The position numbers were made by a program, and so were the translations under genes. DNA of 58,614 nucleotides, counting the filler, from Dugesia japonica (taxonomy: Eukaryota), in assembly GCA_001938525.1 (NCBI GenBank). It is 6 parts of 6 records of this genome, joined end to end, with 100 filler letters (N's around TTAATTAATTAA, not from the genome) between each part and the next. Parts side by side here need not be neighbours in the genome. Positions count along the whole stretch, not along the records: positions 28,276 to 41,421 come from MQRL01647592.1; 5 more parts are not named here. One strand, written 5' to 3'. Within the stretch, counting starts at the first letter, position 1, and each line of letters begins with the position of its first letter. The notes under the pieces are model-generated. The model had not been told where the DNA came from. It saw only the letters and a list, made by a program, of their open reading frames with translations, and ran no database searches. This document shows positions 14,335 through 42,420 of this stretch, piece after piece.

Positions 14335-14800
14335 ATATTGTTATCAAATTTCAATAAAAAAAATAAAAAAACATTTTTTGATCGAAGCTTTTATTTTAAA
14401 TGAATTCTATAAACCGATCAATGGTTATGTCCAACAGTTATTATCGAAACAATTGCATTAGTAAATAACATAGAACCACCAAAATTGGCCGCAAAAACCA
14501 ATTGTTTCGGAAAAGGTAATTCTCTAGATCTGGTGAGATATTAAGGACGTGCTATATTATGAGCTATCGAAACCAGATGAAACAGTTACTGCCAAATGCT
14601 AATAAGACCAATTAATCCAATTGAATCAACACTTGAAGATGAAATTCCCGTTTAGTGGAAAAGAAAAACGATCGTTGAAATTGTTGCTTGACAACGCTAA
14701 ACATTGCTTCGAATACTTCGAATAATCAAAAGATTCTTGATGATGTTGATTTGTATAATATGGTTGTGTGTTTACAGAATGAAGTGGATATGTAGAAAAT
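14335..14800 (+). mobile_element. Decayed mariner transposase fragment (second copy 15436-15740)
   Basis: KVIL*IW*DIKDVLYYELSKPDETVTAKC..QLIQLNQHLKMK..LLLDNAKH matches the mariner DD34D core (KVMLCVWWD..GVIYYELL.PGETV..HDNARPH). Confidence 0.85.
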
Positions 14801-16345
14801 TAATAAAAATAACAATTTTCAAGAATTTTTTGAAACAGATATAAAATTAGATTTTCTTACAAATCTTTTAATAATAAATATCTTAATCAAAATGTTTCGT
14901 TTAAATATAAAACTTTTTATAGTGATTCAATAGTAAAAAATTAAAACAAATCATGANAATNTTTTTTAATAAGTCTTATAAGAATTATAGCAATATTAAT
15001 AATAAGTACTACACGTTTTAGAACGNNAATATTNAAAAAAGCCATTTTGAGCCAGAAAATCCCCTCAAAGATTGTTACTCTTTGTGTGCCAGCTAAATGC
15101 TGTAACAAGAATAATAAAGGAAGAAGCTGTAAGATTAAGCATGAGGCTCAAAGCATCAGAATTCACATGGAATAAGAGTAAAGATACTCCTCTCAACCTG
15201 ATATTATCTTGCAAACTGGGAATTGAGAACAATAGTTTTATACAATTTGATGCATTTGAAACCAATGACTAAGTAAAAGTTAATAAAAATTTAGAAATAA
15301 ATGACCGAAACTTTAATACATTTAGTAATTATAATGATAAATAAAAAAATATCAGATTATTCAGTCTGTATTATTCAAACCAAGANNNNNNNNNNNNNNN
15401 NNNNNNNNNNNNNNNNNNNNNNNNNNNNNNNNNNNCAAAATTGGCCGCAAAAACCAATTGTTTCGGAAAAGGTAATTCTCTAGATCTGGTGAGATATTAA
15501 GGACGTGCTATATTATGAGCTATCGAAACCAGATGAAACAGTTACTGCCAAATGCTAATAAGACCAATTAATCCAATTGAATCAACACTTGAAGATGAAA
15601 TTCCCGTTTAGTGGAAAAGAAAAACGATCGTTGAAATTGTTGCTTGACAACGCTAAACATTGCTTCGAATACTTCGAATAATCAAAAGATTCTTGATGAT
15701 GTTGATTTGTATAATATGGTTGTGTGTTTACAGAATGAAGNNNNNNNNNNNNNNNNNNNNNNNNNNNNNNNNNNNNNNNNNNNNNNNNNNNNNNNTATAA
15801 AATTAGATTTTCTTACAAATCTTTTAATAATAAATATCTTAATCAAAATGTTTCGTTTAAATATAAAACTTTTTATAGTGATTCAATAGTAAAAATTAAA
15901 ACAAATCATGAAAATTTTTTTTAATAAGTCTTATAAGAATTATAGCAATATTAATAATAAGTACTACACGTTTTAGATTAATATTTAAAAAAGCCATTTT
16001 GAGCCAGAAAATCCCCTCAAAGATTGTTACTCTTTGTGTGCCAGCTAAATGCTGTAACAAGAATAATAAAGGAAGAAGCTGTAAGATTAAGCATGAGGCT
16101 CAAAGCATCAGAATTCACATGGAATAAGAGTAAAGATACTCCTCTCAACCTGATATTATCTTGCAAACTGGGAATTGAGAACAATAGTTTTATACAATTT
16201 GATGCATTTGAAACCAATGACTAAGTAAAAGTTAATAAAAATTTAGAAATAAATGACCGAAACTTTAATACATTTAGTAATTATAATGATAAATAAAAAA
16301 ATATCAGATTATTCAGTCTGTATTATTCAAACCAAGATCTAAGCA
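14480..16345 (+). repeat. ~955-bp near-identical tandem duplication spanning an N gap
   Basis: 14480-15385 is repeated at 15436-16337; identical 66-aa ORFs at 15065/16017 and 15072/16024. Confidence 0.95.
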
Positions 16346-23927: not shown

Positions 23928-26387
23928 ATGCTGATGCAAAAACATTCGCCAAACAATAATAATAACAATAATACAAAAATTACGGAAAATGAAGACGTGA
24001 ATTCCAATTCATCTCATTCTAATGGTAATTTCTTTGCCGGGAGAAATACTTCTATAGCTGGTTCTGAATGCAATGATGATAAGTCAAATGATGCCTGCAG
24101 TAGTGGGGACGAGTCTCACGAACAAGATAACGCAGAGCAAGAGAATCAGACTTCTTTTATTGATAGTACAAATAGAGATCAGTATAAACTATCAGCAAAG
24201 AAGAAAAAAAAGAAAACTGTTAAAGTGAAATTTTCTGGCAGTCAAGATGATAAAGCTGGAATTAAGTTGAAAATTAGAAGAACAAATAATTTCAATCAAG
24301 ATGAAAATCATGTCATTGTTGATTCTGCAGATCAACAACAAAAAAGGCATTTAAAAAATAAGCGTAATAAACCCGATTCTCAGGATATTAGTGGATTTAA
24401 AACAAAATCTCAATTGGAAGAAGTATCAAATACTGTTACTAGTGATGATAGTCTTCCACATAAACGAAGTCGTGCCGATTCTGAAGAAGAAATGGTGAGC
24501 CTGACTACTTTTTTTGTTGGATAAATCCAGTTTATTGATTAACTTAGATATCAAAAATGTCAATTGGCGTAAATACATTATCAAAAGGCACAGAAATAGA
24601 TGAGTCTATGTTGGGACCATGTCAAGTTGGGTCAAAATTAACTTTAGAAAGTGTTGTTTTAATGGAAACCCAATCAGGTTGGTTTGAATAGAGAATGATT
24701 CAATAAGTGTTAATATTGATTTTTAAAGGAATACTAATAGTTAGCGTACAATGGAGAGGAAAAACTTTAATGGGAGCTTTAATGGAATCAGAAAGATTTC
24801 AAATTGGAACTTTGTAATAATAATAATTAATTAATAAAATATTTAATTCATTTTTATAAAAATTTTATTTGTTTTAGAGAAAAAGATAGCATTTATAGAC
24901 GAGAGAAATTTATGGGAATGAATCGTAGAAATACAAGAAGAAAATCAAAGAATTTATTTGGTAAAAAGAAACGTAAAACCGCTACACCCCCTGATCCGAA
25001 TGATATTGGCGGCACAGAAAACGAAGCAGGAAATAGTGATGTTGATAATCCATTTATTTGTGATAAAGAGAATTGTCACATGAAATTTTCGGATTTTCAA
25101 ACGTTACGTATTCATATTTATCAGAATCATCGAACGAAAGAAACGAGTAGTAATAATAACAGTAATTTGAGTGTTAAAGAAGAACCTAATGTAAAAGTCG
25201 AATCGTCTGTTGTGATAAAATCTGAATCGAATTCAATTGGAAATGCTTACATCTCTTCAGAATCACTCTATCCGATTTTCAAACATCTCAAATCTGGTGA
25301 TGTGTTACGATCAGATGGCCTACAAACCGGGTCCGTCAGAAATCGACCTAGTCCTCTTCCTGAAGTTATTAATACGAACCATCAAACAGAAGAGAGAAAT
25401 AGTTTCAGTCCTGCCTATTCCGATATTAGCGATGCCAATGAAGCTCCGGTATTGGAAAATGAAGCCGAATTGAAACCTCCATCGTCTGCGTCTCAGCCTC
25501 CTCTCAACCTCTCCCTTTGTCATAATCCGTCTATTCATGCAGCAAATCGATTGTTTTCACCAACTGCACCAGCTCTCCAACCAGAAGGTTTATGTTCAGG
25601 ACCGCCTTTATCAAATCTTCGTGTATCGCATGACACCAAATTGTACGGCAATCGCTATCCTCCCATATCTTCTAAATATGATTCTGAATCTTCCATTTTT
25701 CCCAATGGATATCTTCAGTTATCAAACAATAATACTAATCACAAGCCACAAAATGGGGTTCATACACTCCATCAATCTTCAGGGCCTCCTTCTCATTTAG
25801 ATAATAATAATATAATTCACAATTCCGTAAATGCTATCCAAGATCTCTCTATGAACAGCCCGTTAAATTTGTTCTCAAACAAGACCAACGCAAACAGCAA
25901 TAATAATAATAACAACAACAACAGTAGTAGTCATAATTCAGGGGCGGCAACAACAACACCTCTTAAATATTCTCTCCACAATCACTCCAATCACAAAACT
26001 CCACCAAACATCAGTAAACCTACAACAGTTCATCAGTCTCGTCATCATATTCACTCTTCACAGCATGCCGCTTCTCATCCGCCGCATTCTCATNNNCATT
26101 CTCATCATTCCATCACTAATGGGTATCCGCCACAATCAAATCAAAATTCCAAATATCCGAATGTATTATCTATAAACCAGTCAGACAACAATAGCATCAG
26201 TTCCAATCAGTTACCTCCAAATGGGGTCAGCATAACTCAATTACCCTTTCCATTGTCTTTCAATTCAACTGTGAACAGTCCCCCTCCTAAATTTAGTAAG
26301 TTGTATTTTTCTCTATTTATTCATAAATTAATTAATATTTTATTTTTAGATCCTCCTATGTCCTTGTATCATCAACAGAAATATTGA
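23928..26387 (+). CDS. ZNF608: Scribbler/brakeless (ZNF608/ZNF609 family) nuclear corepressor
   Basis: Exons 23928-24494, 24548-24677, 24729-24813, 24878-26295, 26350-26387, phase-consistent, GT-AG introns of 53/51/64/54 nt. Motifs: IKLKIRRT; LGPCQVGSKLTLESVVLMETQSGILIVSVQWRGKTLMGALM (cf. [40 protein letters not shown]); one C2H2 finger CDKENC..H....H; SPAYSDISD. True start codon uncertain. Confidence 0.9.
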
Positions 26388-30459: not shown

Positions 30460-31800
30460 AATGATTTATTAAAAATCTCGTCATCATCAGGAACAATTTC
30501 AAATTTAATGAAATAAAATTCGTTAGATATTTGTAATGCAAAATTATATTATAGAATAGAAATAGAGCCAAGAGAAAGATGAAACAACATTAGAAAATAA
30601 ATAGTTTCCTTCATTTAAATCATTAAAATTAACATTTGGATGAATAGAATTAATAAATAATCCAGGTCAAATTTCAACAAAATTAAATTTTGCATTAACA
30701 TCAGAAACATCTAAAAAAGAATATGGTCAATTAATAGGTTGGATTCCTGATGGAAATAAAGGTGACACAGATAAAGCCGGGAATATTATAATGTTTGTTA
30801 TTATAAAAGAAAAGAAATATATAATACAATAAATAAATTTGAGGGTTATTTCGAATAAAATTGATTTGGATTTATGCAAAATTATAATACATTATTATAT
30901 ATTTTTATTGAATTAATATGTAACAGACAAATGGATGATAAATTATTATTTTATGGTAAACTTGCAACAATGGAAAATTACAATTATTAGCTTTAGAATT
31001 AAACATTTCAGAATGGTTGTTAAATCCTAGAATGGAATTAATTTATTTAGAAAGAATGTAGTTTGATATACCAATAGGATAAGTTTTTCAAATAGAATAA
31101 CATCAGTAACAATAATGGAAGCAGGAACTCATTATTCTTTAAAAATAGATAATTTAGCATATAAACCGCGATATATTTTTATGAGGAAATAATTATTATT
31201 TAATAGTTTTGAGGCAATAGAAATTGAGTTAATTCTGGATAAAGATTTTTAAAATACTATTCAATAATCATTTTTTATATTAAATATAGTTTGTAGTAGT
31301 AAAATAAAAAATGTCTAACAATGATTCATTCTGATTTTCAAAATGAATCAACAATTGAAGATTTATTTAACAATTTTAACAGTAATAGAAGATCCAGAAA
31401 TTTTATTTACAAAAAACAATAATTTATTTATTCAAAAAGTTGGTGATAAGAATTGAAAAAGATTCAAATCTAATTAAATAATACATATTACCCAATAAAT
31501 AGAATGAAATTTGATATTGAAACAATTGAAATGATATTTCCATATTTAACATATATTAATTGTAAAGAATTTAATCAATCGCCCAAATTATCCTTAAATG
31601 ATTTTGTAAATTTATATCCTGTATTTTGTATGGATGTTAGCGCACAAGATGATAAATTAAATACTAATAATGTAGATATAACTTTACATATAACAAAAAT
31701 AGGGATTTTAAGGGAATAAAAATATATTGAAATGAGAATTGCAGATTGTAAAATCAATTTGATAGAAACTATCAGAGGACAGAATATTCAATAACTTAGT
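30460..31800 (+). mobile_element. Decayed Polinton/Maverick (adintovirus-like) double-jelly-roll major capsid gene
   Basis: Collinear fragments TTLENK*FPSFKSLKLTFG*IELINNPGQISTKL..GWIPD, KIDNLAYKPRYIF, YYPINRMKFD and FVNLYPVFCMDVSAQDDKL...VDITLHI resemble conserved Polinton MCP blocks; no introns, many stops and frameshifts. Confidence 0.62.
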
Positions 31801-33109: not shown

Positions 33110-35477
33110 ATGAATGAAATATTTGAATTTCAATTTGAAGATGATATTTTTGATAATGTAGTGAATGAAAAGATTATTTGTAAAACTAAAAGTGATTTGA
33201 ATATTAAAAATGAATTAGTAATCAGTGGTTTTGTTTATTAATTATTATTGAGATTAGTGGTTTCTAGATAAATCTTCAAGCTGTGATGATTACGAAAATA
33301 TTTTAAAATATCAGATGAATTATTTCTATTTTACTAAATCATATGAAAATTGTTATTCTAAAGCAAAAGAATTGTTTAGTAATAATTTTTATAAAACTTT
33401 TATTTAATTCATTGAAATAAGATTTTTTAACGGGTAATAATTCGGTGGAGAAAAGAAATTCTTTAGAATTCATGTTGTATAGTGGAATAAAGATTGGAAA
33501 TTTCGATGATTGTTTCGAATTGCTTGCAAATTTGGTTGGAGTTTTTTTTTTAATTGAAATCTTAGTTTTATTGAGCAATATAGCAACAATACATTTCGAT
33601 CTCGGACAATTTGGTGTCGTACCTGGTGATATGCGAGCAACTCTATTTGGCGATGAATGATTTCTGCAGTAAATTATTATTTGTTTACATTTGAAATAAA
33701 TTTTAATAATAAAATTAAATAATCAATAAAAAGTTTATCGTCTCAATCGATTAATGTGACGTAATAAAATATCTTCTGACATTTGTAGAGAGTCAAAAAA
33801 TGCAAGGAGAAAAATTTAACCGAATTTAGACAAAGTTTTGTCGAGCTAATCTAGGGGGAACCGAGAGGGTGATGAAACCAAGGCAAACTAGTAAATCATT
33901 TCCATTTTCGCTATTTTGGGGGAATTTTGGATTTTGTAAATAAATAAAATCACAAACAAACACTTTTTTTGATTTTTCAGATTTTTTAAAAAATATTTCT
34001 TAAGAATCTTTTAAATATTTTTTCAAACCTTGAAAAAATTAATTTATTATTTTTTTCTAAATTTTTTAGAATTTTTTTCAAGATTTTTCTAAATTTTCCT
34101 AGAATTTTTAATGTTTTTTAGATAATATAAGATTTTAAAAAATTTTTTCAAACAATTTTTTTAACTTTTTTGAAATTTTTAAAGGTTTTTTTAGATTTTT
34201 TAAAAATTTTTTTTCAAGTATTTTATTCTTGTTAATTAATTTTTCTTTAGTGAAGTAGTTGATTTTTCCTTCTTAATTGCTCTGCGTTGCTTCTTTTTCA
34301 AATTTTCTTTTCTCTTCAAATTTTTTCATTTACAGAAAAGATTATTTCAATCGAAACCTAAAATTACAAGAAATTATCGTAATTTTAAAAAAAGTGAAAT
34401 TTTTTTCAGAATAAGTATGAAAAAAATATTTTAAATAGTGAAAACAAAAGTAAGAAAATTAAGCAAAAAAAAAATTTTTATAAAGTAAAAATTTTAAAAT
34501 TACAAAAATATCATATTTTTCTGTCAAATCTGTCGTTAAAATTGATTATTTATCGATTTATTATTTATCGATTTATTATTTATCGATTTATTATTTATCG
34601 ATTTATTATTTATCGATTNNNNNNNNNNNNNNNNNNNNNNNNNNNNNNNNNNNNNNNNNNNNNNNNNNGATTTATTATTTATCGATTTATTATTTATCGA
34701 TTTATTATTTATCGATTTATTAATTATGGATTTATTATTTATCGATTTATTATTTATCGATTTATTATTTATCGATTTATTATTTATCGATTTATTATTT
34801 ATCGATTTATTATTTATCGATTTATTATTTATCTATTTATTAATTATGGATTTATTATTTATCGATTTATTATTTATCGATTTATTATTTATCGATTTAT
34901 TATTTATCGATTTTATTGATTTATTATTTATTGATTTATTATGGCGCATCTTTATCCACATTATATATTTATTGTAACATGGAGTATATTTTCTATAATG
35001 TTTTGTTACCAGAATTAGTGGCCATTTACAAGCGTCTTCTCTTATTAATTCCGTCTAGCGGGCGCTATTGGAACGCATTAAAAGGTCTGCTTGACAACCC
35101 CTCCCTGGAAGGAGTATTTAATGACGATTGTCGATTAGTTATACCTCTGCTGACCAATGTTGCGATGTTGACAATTGAAGGATCAGTAAGGAAACATTAA
35201 TAATAATTACTTATTTCTTCATTTCTCCTCTCAACCATTTCCAGAAAACCAATGAGCATTTCATCACCGCAGTAATTTCTCATTTTGCATCTCTCTGATA
35301 ACATCATCTTATTATTTGTCTCGCTAGATCTTCGCAGATATCACCAAGATCATTTCACAATCGATTATCGATGATGTACGCAACCCAAGATTTGTTGGAC
35401 TCGAGGACTTCAGCGAGTCGGATCAATTATTCCAACAACTCTTCGTTGATTGTGCCAAATTTTGTTATAATAAATAA
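33110..35477 (+). CDS. C8orf76: C8orf76-like TPR-fold protein, 7 exons, 258 aa
   Basis: Exons 33110-33217, 33258-33378, 33422-33534, 33584-33668, 35013-35185, 35245-35271, 35328-35477 total 777 nt, all GT-AG and in phase. FEDDIFD..WFLDKSSSCDD..NSVEKRNSLE..G..DCFELLANL..DNLVSYL..KRLLLLIPSSGRYWNAL aligns by eye with C8orf76 (FEDSVFE..WFYEETESSDD..NFAMKRDVQE..EIAANL..DHLTTVL..QKLISLHPFNPWNW). Confidence 0.78.
34545..34942 (+). repeat. 15-bp minisatellite (GATTTATTATTTATC)n in intron 4 of the C8orf76-like gene
   Basis: Visible directly; explains the FIIYR and DLLFI ORFs. Confidence 0.95.
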
Positions 35478-36074
35478 ATAATTTTTATCGGGAATTTACT
35501 TTTCCCTTTGATGTTATCTTTCTAGTGAAAATTTAATTGATTTCAACCATTCGTGTGCGTGTGTGTGCAAGTGCGATCTTAGATGACTAACAAGCAGCTA
35601 AACAAATGTGGCCTGTGATGTCTTGTAAAAATTATTTTGTCTAATTTTTCTTGAGGATATAAATAAAACACAATTAACAAGATTTATTTGATAATTTATT
35701 TTGTGTTGTTTTCATAATTTAGGATCTGGTTAAACTAAAAAGATGTCAATTCAATATGCAAATATTGGAAATCAGTCCAGAGGACAAGACAATCTTTTGT
35801 CAAGAATTGATAATATGTTGAAAATAGATATACGAGTGATAAAAAGTACTTGATAAATGTAATATTCAAAGGATTAAAAAGATATAACAATACAATTAGC
35901 TCTATTTTGAAAATAAAAACTGTTCAAGATTTTAATTAATAAATGTTTTAAACCCTATTTTGTTTATTTCTTTTCATTAGTTATATACTACTTGGTTAAA
36001 TTTTATTAATGAGATAAATAAAATACACAATTCAAACTAACAAGATTTATTAAATATCGCATTATTTGTAGTTT

Positions 36075-36482
36075 TCATGCATATGTATTGCACTGTTCAA
36101 ATCTGACAATACTATAAACTTGATTTTGATAATATAAACTCTTGAGACCAAGTATTACAACTTTTCCACTAGCAAATACATTAACACATGTAGGATTGTA
36201 TTTAGTAAATCTCAATGCTGGAAATAATTCGGGTTCATTCATACACTTGGTTATTTTTGATAATGTTTACAAATTAACGGATTGTTAAAAAATTAACTAC
36301 AATAGTTAACGATTGTAATTGAATGTTTTAATATCATTCTATAAATGTTTCATTGCTATTGGTTTCTTGCACTTTCCATTTTTATCAATGATTTGTGATG
36401 GTTTACCGATAGGAAAATTCATTTTACTGGTGATTTCTTGAGATAACTGTCCTTTATAATTAATATTAGTAATTATTTGTAT
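36075..36482 (-). pseudogene. Compact intronless TBP-like pseudogene, probably virus/Polinton-derived
   Basis: ITNINYKG..KPSQIIDKNG..CKKPI..IQLQSLTIVVNF..VNL*TLSK..CMNEPELFPALRFTKYNPTCVNVFASGKVVILGLKS. The last block matches TBP repeat 2 (YEPELFPGL..IF.SGKVVL.GAK). Stops and two frameshifts. Confidence 0.75.
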
Positions 36483-36566
36483 TATTAATAGCTTTGAAAT
36501 ATGTACCTTATTGTAAATAATTCGTTTAAACAATATAAACAAGGTTCTAAATTATTAATTTTTAAA

Positions 36567-36683
36567 ATGAATAAATTAAGAAATGATGCTTTATATCAAA
36601 TTTTTGGTCCTAAGTGTAGTAGAAAAGCACTGTTTATATGCGAATTATTGAAATCCAATTTATTTAAATCAAAATTCAAAAAA
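36567..36683 (+). pseudogene. N-terminal fragment of an A32/FtsK-like packaging ATPase (Polinton-like)
   Basis: MNKLRNDALYQIFGPKCSRKALFICELLKSNLFKSKF: hydrophobic strand plus degenerate Walker A (GP..S[G>R]K) near the N-terminus; truncated by Gypsy sequence. Confidence 0.45.
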
Positions 36684-39600
36684 TGGACAAAAAAATGTGA
36701 GTATAGTTTTCAATTTTTGAAGATAAAATTGTGTAGTGCTCCGATTTTGACTTTCCCAAATAATTGGGGCGAAATGATATTGGGTACTGATGCTAGTTTT
36801 TGAGCAATTGGATAAGTTTTGAGTCAAATAACGGATAAGGGATTGGAACAGACCATAGCATATGGTTCTCAAAATTTAAACAACTACGAAAAAGGATATT
36901 GCGTTACTTGTATTGCATATATGTTTTCGTTGTGGTTCAATAAGATATTTATGCAGTAATTGTCCTCTAAAAGATTGCTGTTTAATTTGTGGAAAATCCT
37001 GACATAATTTTAGAAGTTGTAGAATGCTTAGGAAATATCACCACAGAAACGATGTTAGATGTATTGCAGATAAAACTAATGAAAAAAATGCAATAGATGT
37101 AATTTGCGATGAATTAGATGAAATAGCACACGATGTAAACATTTAAACGATAAGGACTTCACTGTTCCAACTTTGTCTGTAAGAAAAAATCAAAATCAAA
37201 ATTTAAACGTAGATGATGAGATATATGTGAAAAGCGATGGAAGAATATGGAGCGTGGTTAAAGTAAATTGTAGAGGTGTGGATATATTATAGGACACAGG
37301 AGCATCGATTTCAGTAATGGATGTGAATTCTTGGAAAATATGTGGTTCGTTTCCATTGAAAAATTCGGAAATAAAATTGAGTGGAGTCTTTTTTAACAAA
37401 GTCAGTAAATGTTTAGGCTTTGAAAAAGTGAAAATTGAGGGCAATAATATGAACGAAACTGTCAACTTGGTAGTTGTTTAAACCCAGAGTTCATTGGGAC
37501 AATGGACATGTTCAAAGTCTTTAATATTCAATTAAATATGATTAGATTAATTGAGTCAGATAATGTAATGTGTGATGTTTCTGCTGAGAATCGTTTACGA
37601 GTCACAATGGACATTTTCAGACCAAGAGGTGACACTTTAAAAAAAATTGTTAAAGCGTTTATCCTCGATATTCATGGCGCATATGTTTGACCTGGGAAAA
37701 GCCTATCTAGTTAAATTTCCAATAAAAACAACGGGAAATCCTATCTTACAGCAGTCAAAACGGCAACTGATGTATCTAGAATGTAAGATTGATGAGATGA
37801 TTGAAACATTTGTCAAAATCAGCATTATAAAATCATGCAATGGCCCGCGGAACTCACCTATGGTGATTGTTAACAAAACAATGGAGTTATTCGTATGTAT
37901 TAGAATTTTAGATAATTGAATGAAGCAACTGATAAATTTTCGTTTCCTATGCTATATCCTTTAATGTTATTTGACCATCTTAGTGAGTGTACCATATTCT
38001 CAACATTAGATTTAGGTCAAACATATTATCAAGTCGAACTAGAAAACGATGATAAAATTAAAATCGCTTTTTTTACAAAGAAAGGCCAGTACTATTATAA
38101 TCGCATGTCATTCAGCCTATCAACCGCTCTACATGAGTTTATTATGTATTTTAAGCGCTATTTGTATGGCATGAAATTTAGAGCAAGAACGGATCATAAA
38201 GCATTGACTTTTATGACGAAGACTAGTAAGCCTATTAGTTCTCAGTTTCAAACATGGATAACAAACCTAGCAGAATTTAATTTTGAACTAGAATTCCAAA
38301 AAGGAGCAGGTCATGGAAATGCTAATAGACTTTCAAGGATAGGAGAGAGTCTTTGTTCGCAATATCAGACTATACACCAAGATGCCAAAGGGGAACGATC
38401 TCGAGTTAAAAGAATCAACACTTTAGACAAAGCAAACTTTGATAGAAGCCATTTTAAAGAAGTACAGAGAAATGATCCAATAGCGAGAGAAATCATTGAA
38501 TATATTGAAAGTGGAATGATAAATAATAAGCTGAGCGCAATTGAGACCAAAAGTAAATATTTTTCTAAACTGGAAAAGTTTAAGTTGGATGATGAGATAC
38601 TGATTATCGATGAAGGATACAAGAAAAGAATTGTATTGGCAAGAAAATCGATATCTGACCTTATAAATTTTATACATTATGAATTATGTCATGTGGAAGA
38701 CCAAAAACTGATGGAGTAGTTGAGTGTAAGTTTATTTTGGCCAAATATTCAAAAAATATAGAACATCAACTAAAAAAATGTATGATATGTAACATGCGTA
38801 AAACATACACTGGGTGAACAAAGGAATTTCATATTTCAAGAACAGAATTTGGACTACTAGAAGAGGTTATCATAAATATCGCTTACTTTCCAGAAGTGAA
38901 AACCAAAAAGAAATATGTTCTCGTCATGGTTGACAGGTATAGTAAGTTAGTGTCATTCGTAGCGTTAAGTAAACAGAATTAAACTTCGGTAATTGAGGCA
39001 ATAAAGGAAAATTGGATATATCGTTTTGGTAAGCCAAAATCATTTTTGATCGACAGAGCAAAAATATTTGAAGGAAAGTTAATGCGGTCACTTCCAGAGA
39101 AGTTTGAGATTCAACAAGAATTTTCGTCCCTATATCAACATCAATCAAATGGTTTAGCAGAAAGAAATATTAAAACACTTCGAGATATGATGCTAACAAC
39201 GAGAAAGAACAGCTGCACAAAATCAGGTTGAGACAAATTACTTCCACGAATTTAGTTTGTAATAAATGAAACACAACAAAAATCGACAGGTCTATCACCT
39301 TTTGAAATTATTTTAGGAAGAAGAATAGTCTTACACTAATTACCACAAGAAAGAAATCCGAAACACGAAGAAATGAAAAACTGGCAGATGAAAATTTACA
39401 GAAATCAACTCAAAACTTAAGCAAATACGAATGTGAAAAACGAACGTCCAGACATTTTGAAGAAGGGGAAAAATATTAGTGAAATTAGAACCACTTAAGT
39501 TAAAGAAAGAAGGTTTCAGGTATGAAGGTCCTGGCAAAATTAGTAAATTTATAAGCCCGCGNNNNNNNNNNNNNNNNNNNNNNNGACAGCTTAAACCGAG

Positions 39601-42004: not shown

Positions 42005-42420
42005 ATTCGTACACAATCCTTTTTTATGTCTTTATTGATTAATCTATTTGAATTCATCACTTCTGTATAATGAAACTTTTCACTATCTTTTAGTTGTCAA
42101 TTACTTAAGAACTAAGTATAATGTCTAAATTCCAATGTTTCATTATAACATTTTCATCTTCCATAATAAGATATTGATTGAAAATCGAGGATATTTTCAA
42201 GCTTCATCGACAATCTGTCTCTTTATATACAAGTTTGGACATGTATTCTTTATATTTTGCCAATCGATTTTTATTTTCACCTATTTTATGCTGTTTGAGA
42301 ATTGCAAGAAAACTATATATGAAGCACGTACTTTTGATATTCTTGATATTAACAATAATATTTTTTAACAAACTTTTTCGGGGTTGGAAAATAGTTTCTA
42401 CCACAAAGCTTATTGGTATT
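42005..42420 (-). mobile_element. Decayed N-terminal region of a Polinton/adintovirus protein-primed DNA polymerase B
   Basis: GRNYFPTP/KSLLKNIIVNIKNIKSTCFIYSFLAIL..NKNRLAKYKEYMSKLVYKE..MKLENI..SINIL..FHYTEVMNSNRLI parallels GSSYIPLP..IINVKN.D..CF.WAIL..RVSKYK.Y...L.F....FP..L..I..SINV..HY..IKNL.RL. Confidence 0.65.

Follow-up and report, generated by a model that had tools for sequence, protein, structure and literature searches.

How Polintons time the expression of their capsid genes, and if those of animals are viruses in their own right, are open questions, and we know of no Polinton that encodes an RNA polymerase. Viral relatives of the TATA-binding protein (TBP) are described elsewhere. 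KSHV ORF24 reads TATTWAA late promoters, according to the available part of PMC12529657. In cellular TBP, a pair of glutamates in the C-lobe binds TFIIB and Brf, the same residues contacting Brf1/Brf2, and a basic patch on helix H2 of the N-lobe serves TFIIA, TAF1, Mot1 and NC2; in viral TBPs the glutamate pair is mostly lost, and TFIIB is supplied by the virus itself (Ravarani et al. 2020, PMC7221094). A TBP-like gene is also labelled in a MELD virus (Fig. 5 legend of Starrett et al. 2021, PMC8502044); the accessible passages describe neither its family and range nor its structure or promoter, and one supplement file of that paper holds 0 matches to TBP. The terms TBP and TATA are absent from the text of PMC11161782, PMC10748475 and 10.64898/2026.06.19.733378, and our literature search, outside which lay subscription papers, figures and bioRxiv supplements, returned no description of a TBP family in Polintons or of a TATAAAC promoter in these elements.

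Here we describe a broken gene for a miniature TBP (mini-TBP) in a 58.6-kb stretch of Dugesia japonica DNA, the whole of which is called the window. The DNA of the window is rich in AT (GC mostly 20–35%) and of animal type, with histone and C-type lectin matches along it, and it contains a 1-kb fragment of an adintovirus-type Polinton, a broken leftover rather than an element (Table 1). An earlier, sequence-only reading had placed a mid-size endogenous DNA virus here; of this, the Polinton affiliation stands, and the window holds the fragment and not the element. The same reading had seen a disrupted minus-strand TBP-like frame of about 135 codons, which is borne out: the gene reads from 36476 to 36075 and comprises 134 codons including the final stop. 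Its part at 36075–36266 (minus strand) matches Pfam TBP (PF00352) above the cut-off (E 3.6e-7, 30.4 bits, cut-off 22.9) as well as solved TBPs (best E 1.5e-7). The window copy is dead and likely functionless: it has five in-frame internal stops and no start, lacks ~15 codons of lobe 1 and is briefly out of frame between the two lobes. Over residues 1–139 of an intact relative of 151 residues, P0002, it is 66% identical (E 6e-59).

Table 1. Coordinates of the Polinton-derived fragment and of the features that border it in the window.
Feature	Position	Strand	Basis or remark
Spliced single-copy host gene, 3' end	35100–35494	+	Two GT..AG joints, introns of 59 and 56 bases, poly-A at 35494
Polinton-derived repeated block	35710–36683		Contig depth
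Broken mini-TBP gene, two lobes	36075–36476	-	Pfam TBP, alignment to P0002, tree
Gap between divergent genes, 90 bases	36477–36566		
TATAAAC box	36534–36540	+	33 bases before the ATG of the window ATPase
A32-type packaging ATPase, 5' stub of 39 codons, eroded Walker A	36567–36683	+	Profile score, alignment to L014
Decayed Gypsy-type retroelement (RNase H-like, RT and integrase pieces)	36684–39231	+	Pfam; boundary of the block, outside the system

The divergent gene starts with an ATG at 36567, 90 bases from the first TBP codon. Its product shares 20 of 37 residues with the ATPase of locus L014 (E 6e-10), and an ATPase profile scores it at 25.6 bits, where 300 shuffled versions of that kilobase reach 6.7 at most; with Pfam by itself the 39-residue stub goes unrecognised. 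An A32-like ATPase frame some 85 bp from the TBP gene had been proposed, and it is indeed an ATPase; the distance is 90 bases, and beyond the 39 ATPase codons the frame is Gypsy. The frame 36498–36803, taken as one ATPase ORF, was accordingly rejected as a chimera, being Gypsy RNase H-like from 36684 (RT_RNaseH_2, E 4.7e-7). At that position the ATPase frame passes directly into an internal piece of the retroelement, and because no LTR is seen at the joint, deletion or recombination would be more likely than a clean insertion. The direct head-to-head layout recurs in none of the eight relative loci that hold both genes: in seven they share a strand, and in L008 they are divergent and 1.7 kb apart.

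Summed contig depth in DNA run X1, which is not a copy number, is 3,343–63,821 per bin over 35710–36685 and 7–62 per bin over 35100–35709. The mini-TBP gene and the ATPase stub both lie inside the high-depth region and therefore belong to one repeated block of ~1 kb, in which a decayed plus-strand frame near 35744 is also found. Since related sequences depart from the window sequence at 36683 (69 reads in X23, six contigs in X8), other copies of the block continue differently past this point. RNA reads over the block (351 in X23 and 11 in X22, on both strands; 0 of the 351 at an identity of at least 99%) come from relatives, so they say nothing of the window copy's expression. With the host gene as strand reference, these reads lean to sense over the TBP gene (36 vs 15 in the best bin) and to antisense over the ATPase stub (59 vs 15). 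The ORF upstream in the host gene left of the block (35100–35494) has no Pfam match. Of the window's 194 inverted pairs, none of the 25 longest proved to be a terminal inverted repeat, and the rest of the ATPase and the TBP-clade capsid, protease and exonuclease-like genes did not rise above noise in it.

The window holds further remnants. A decayed, near full-length double-jelly-roll capsid gene at 30460–31779 (plus strand; PF21738, covering residues 29–428 of P0317) is a second, independent endogenous DNA virus remnant. We rejected it as part of the TBP element: it belongs to another clade (BLASTP E 0.9 against the TBP-clade capsid), and the spliced single-copy host gene separates it from the TBP block. 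At 42037–42398 (minus strand), a faint resemblance (E 2e-4) to the N-terminus of the polymerase-like protein of locus L028 is possibly a further Polinton scrap. A long host exon at 24831–26387 (plus strand), with a C2H2-like finger, an SPAYSDISD motif and no Pfam match, is presumably ZNF608/609 (scribbler)-like, and a near-identical duplication of ~950 bases at 14480–16279, beside an N gap, is probably an assembly artefact.

A search with the window fragment returned 46 proteins out of 49 candidates, mostly of 144–176 residues and all with Pfam TBP. That the frame is not a processed copy of host TBP, as the sequence-only reading held, agrees with these best matches, which are intronless proteins of ~150 residues and not host TBP or TRF. 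A 45-protein profile run against a 50%-identity library gave 62 representatives at E 1e-30 and 745 at 1e-10, the lower ranks of the latter including more divergent forms and cellular TBPs. Some of the proteins P0109–P0195 make up a larger group of short TBP-like proteins that have diverged further and whose first lobe is longer. P0002 scores 55.7 bits against PF00352 (cut-off 22.9), and its AlphaFold2 model (pLDDT 95.1) superposes on yeast TBP with Z 13.5 and an rmsd of 2.5 over 147 aligned residues, at ~20–27% identity to solved TBPs. Foldseek likewise matches the model to TBP over its whole length, which upholds the TBP fold. As judged from the model and the alignment, mini-TBP is a two-lobed member of the TBP family and not a canonical TBP. 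Phylogeny agrees with the proposed separation from host proteins: of the 61 rows of a tree, 30 form a clade (98/97) that takes in the window copy and each of the 10 hallmark-linked mini-TBPs, and four cellular-type TBPs are separate (100/99). This tree is midpoint-rooted with a bootstrap that is not fully settled, its rows are hand-picked with giant-virus TBPs left out, and it gives no donor.

No relative turned up in IMG/VR when the fragment and the TBP, ATPase and two capsid alignments served as queries, or in phage records. A pattern search of GTDB genomes likewise gave no mini-TBP, yet L028 holds one that the pattern misses. The Polinton contigs L028–L030 occur in GTDB bacterial MAGs, presumably by binning contamination.

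Searching JGI metagenomes with a TBP alignment, we obtained 27 loci among 38 pattern matches, and 109 of their 158 ORFs, those of at least 100 residues, were scanned with Pfam. A Pfam-backed hallmark gene is present in 11 of the 27 loci (Pox_A32 in seven, rve in two and Peptidase_C5 in five, one of them below cut-off). A twelfth locus, L026, has a minor-capsid-type gene only, and the other 15 are short or carry accessory genes, many of which are common to the hallmark loci. The gene order in L025 is ATPase, core-type, integrase, minor capsid-type, core-type, major capsid-type, protease, exonuclease-like and TBP. L028, a 12.7-kb contig found independently via its capsid gene, encodes a polymerase-like protein, ATPase, integrase, capsid-type genes, protease and mini-TBP, so that Pox_A32 is found in L028 in addition to the seven loci. 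The rve integrase and the adenain-type protease occur together in both L025 and L028, and neither is in the window fragment. Capsid-type genes of 413 and 350–400 residues stand at the expected places and have 269 homologues, with no Pfam match; the capsid, core and exonuclease names are our assumption, resting on position and motifs and not on a family match. The 1073-residue polymerase-like ORF of L028 has no PF03175, PHROG polymerase or PDB match, and we take motifs seen in it by eye to be those of PolB; PolB is absent from the 27 short loci. Mini-TBP genes thus lie within Polinton gene clusters. The expectation that intact copies would adjoin Polinton genes held for ATPase, integrase, protease and capsid-type genes, while terminal inverted repeats and target-site duplications were not found in L028 and L030, both partial contigs.

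Other small genes recur in these clusters. A protein of 105–128 residues encoded next to mini-TBP in 11 loci (e.g. L001:1696–2064) resembles the fold of the T7 gp2.5/ASFV CP312R single-stranded DNA-binding proteins (SSB; Z 6.3–7.1), and we assign it as SSB-like with moderate confidence. A gene of ~160 residues adjoins mini-TBP in nine loci (L018:3360–3860, L025:5870–6355 and L028:10736–11215 among them); it has no Pfam match and, by eye, presumably encodes a DEDD-type exonuclease. An ORF of 34–56 residues with a Met-Gly start and a Cys-rich motif precedes the integrase (L001:5299, L014:3021, L025:1531, L028:6131); it is, by its sequence, a candidate small myristoylated virion protein. It begins 35–48 bases after a TATAAAC and accounts for the boxes counted for integrase genes.

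This heptamer is the second feature of the family. TATAAAC precedes packaging, capsid-type, protease and core-type genes and does not precede TBP or SSB-like genes. Within 130 bases upstream of each gene, it occurs before 24 of 29 virion-module ('late') genes (1.08 expected) and before 0 of 26 TBP and SSB-like ('early') genes (0.89 expected), 'early' and 'late' being labels by gene function and not by timing. Left out of the count were the near-duplicates L002, L003, L006, L009, L012 and L021, the partial L027, the L018 TBP, whose ATG is unclear, and three exonuclease-like genes lying at the edge of a contig. Among the five late genes without the box, three have TATAAAT. An ordinary TATA box stands before 13 of 19 TBP genes, and canonical TATA is marginally more frequent in the early than in the late set (17/26 vs 11/29, p 0.06). 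CCAAT boxes were rejected as an early-gene mark: they precede 7 of 19 TBP genes, with no significant early over late excess (p 0.77).

TATAAAC was picked by eye while reading upstream regions and counted on the same data, and the loci are kin; for this reason the association was put to four more tests. In L028, which lay outside the original sample, 11 copies are sense and 0 antisense, and they precede 8 of its 11 main ORFs and not the TBP, polymerase or exonuclease-like gene; in L029, a partial contig where no TBP was found, the box precedes three genes. Over 53.9 kb of 11 loci, sense copies outnumber antisense ones by 55 to 1. When gene labels are ignored, 54 of the 65 sites present in 23 loci lie 20–130 bases before an ORF start (8–40% for seven control heptamers), and the spacing from box to ATG peaks at 32–39 bases. 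Finally, the codons used for x-Ile-Asn yield the box 14 times out of 23 towards gene ends and once out of 27 elsewhere (4.8% expected); since they do so where the box overlaps the upstream gene, the constraint acts on the DNA. The TBP-less Polinton L030 (PF03175 polymerase), in which, as in its MAG, no mini-TBP was found, has 0 sense TATAAAC and instead TATAAAA (8 sense, 0 antisense) in the 12.6 kb of its contig that belong to the element. L030 is the sole TBP-less control, and with 31% capsid identity its clade is distant; the co-occurrence of TBP and box therefore counts as one contrast. In the window the box stands before the ATPase stub, and the ATPases of intact relatives have the same box at a spacing of 32–48 in six of six tested; with 15 plus-strand TATAAAC in 58.6 kb, the chance of one in any given 130 bases is ~3%. 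Two further plus-strand copies, at 36113 and 36133, lie antisense in the 3' end of the broken TBP gene and may be due to chance.

The residues that face DNA and partner proteins were mapped from the 45-row family on a cellular TBP from the matches, using what we take to be yeast TBP numbering. The family keeps F116, F190, F207, K211 and G216. F99 is replaced by Pro in 43 of 45 proteins, which leaves three of the four intercalating Phe and, judging from the substitution, could weaken DNA binding. The DNA face carries Arg at V122 (44/45), Arg at I194 (45/45) and Asn at L205 (45/45), with Met at T124 (45/45) and Ser at N159 (43/45) as further changes; the C-lobe counts are partly circular, as the search used that region and L205 lies inside the driving motif region. 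In the 27 locus proteins, which were selected without the glutamate loop, both TFIIB positions are acidic in all 27 (E/D and E), R194 is present in 27 and R122 in 26. The long second helix of the N-lobe (H2) is absent from both the alignment and the P0002 model.

On this sequence evidence we consider it probable (roughly 0.65) that mini-TBP is a viral late-promoter factor that would read TATAAAC and recruit host TFIIB and Pol II. Host TBP would transcribe mini-TBP and the replication genes early; mini-TBP, with its re-lined DNA face, would then prefer TATAAAC, its conserved C-lobe glutamate pair would bind host TFIIB, and loss of the N-lobe helix would free it from control of the TFIIA/TAF1/Mot1/NC2 type. 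The outcome would be an early-to-late switch without a viral polymerase, and the element likely brings its own switch for late viral genes. Several observations weigh against this reading: the single TBP-less control, the kinship of the loci, the choice of the motif by eye, the five late genes that lack TATAAAC, the box before three genes of L029 where no TBP was found, the Phe lost to Pro, the chance that host TBP reads the box, and the antisense lean of RNA over the ATPase stub. The broader proposal we rate at even odds: in a widespread clade of animal Polintons, one minimal TBP of 150 residues would read TATAAAC, engage host TFIIB/Pol II, escape host TBP regulators and so drive an autonomous early-to-late transcription cascade. 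A TBP mimic redirecting or inhibiting host transcription had been suggested from the sequence; the TBP gene in a virus lineage holds, and the evidence favours activation of the virus's own late promoters over inhibition.

Inhibition would be the role of mini-TBP if host TBP itself read TATAAAC and the viral protein acted as a decoy, tying up TFIIB/Brf or blocking TATA promoters to shut the host down. Host TBP may indeed read this box, since a crystal structure (PDB 1qn3) shows cellular TBP on the adenovirus TATA box in its C(-25) variant, which we take to spell TATAAAC. Retained TFIIB glutamates together with a lost N-lobe regulatory helix would suit a dominant-negative protein, as would the loss of one intercalating Phe. 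A pure decoy, however, leaves unexplained why new DNA-face residues (Arg V122, Arg I194, Asn L205) are invariant and why TATAAAA in the TBP-less L030 is switched to TATAAAC, and we regard it as unlikely.

Slightly less likely again is that mini-TBP marks TATAAAC and depends on a further factor from the element or a helper virus, or recruits Pol III via Brf. Long protein-coding targets are ill-suited to Pol III, and the box-to-ATG peak of 32–39 bases, a spacing as for Pol II TATA boxes, also argues against it. The shared Brf1/Brf2 contacts of the glutamates and the pairing of most viral TBPs with a viral TFIIB (PMC7221094, available sections) speak for such a dependence, as do the six viral factors that KSHV needs (PMC12529657, available part) and several neighbouring gene families without identity; however, none of the 135 ORFs scanned matches a TFIIB or cyclin family. 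The chance that the window gene is a decayed processed copy of host TBP or TRF lying beside Polinton debris by accident is close to nil. In the window no intact element and no terminal repeats were found, and host genes and Gypsy pieces surround the fragment, as they might such a copy; its kinship is, however, with P0002, itself only ~20–27% identical to solved TBPs, its tree position is with the mini-TBPs, and TBP and ATPase are neighbours within a single high-copy block. Given the intact relatives and their linkage to Polinton genes, a processed pseudogene of the host is excluded.

Should the broader proposal of an autonomous cascade be correct, no viral system known to switch promoters would be smaller, and mini-TBP would be a TBP whose specificity had changed in nature. 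With a dedicated TBP and a matching box, TATAAAC becomes a marker by which late genes, even very short ones, can be annotated in sequence. Because its DNA face is altered and the regulatory helix of the N-lobe is gone, such a natural TBP would also inform on how TATA specificity is set and could serve as an orthogonal promoter tool.

In comparison with known systems, the relatives share with adintoviruses and Polintons the rve integrase, the packaging ATPase and the adenain-type protease; L028 adds a candidate PolB, which misses PF03175 as does the polymerase of the adintovirus Beta class (PMC8502044). With cellular TBP, mini-TBP shares the full-length two-lobed saddle, three intercalating Phe and the C-lobe glutamate pair; it differs in being ~30 residues shorter, in missing the long second helix of the N-lobe, in having one Phe replaced by Pro, in its polar or basic inward-facing residues, in its lack of introns and in an identity of ~20–27%. 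Giant-virus (Nucleocytoviricota) TBPs are Foldseek matches to it in BFVD (E down to 2e-8), yet they mostly lose the glutamate pair (~40% conserved) and use a viral TFIIB (PMC7221094), whereas mini-TBP keeps the pair and no TFIIB was detected. KSHV ORF24, a TBP mimic of the beta/gammaherpesvirus type, likewise combines a viral TBP fold and a polar DNA face with a variant TATA box at late promoters and host-like early promoters, and its architecture is different (PMC12529657, in the part available). The probable late-promoter factor described here would place such a viral TBP mimic with a variant late box in Polintons.
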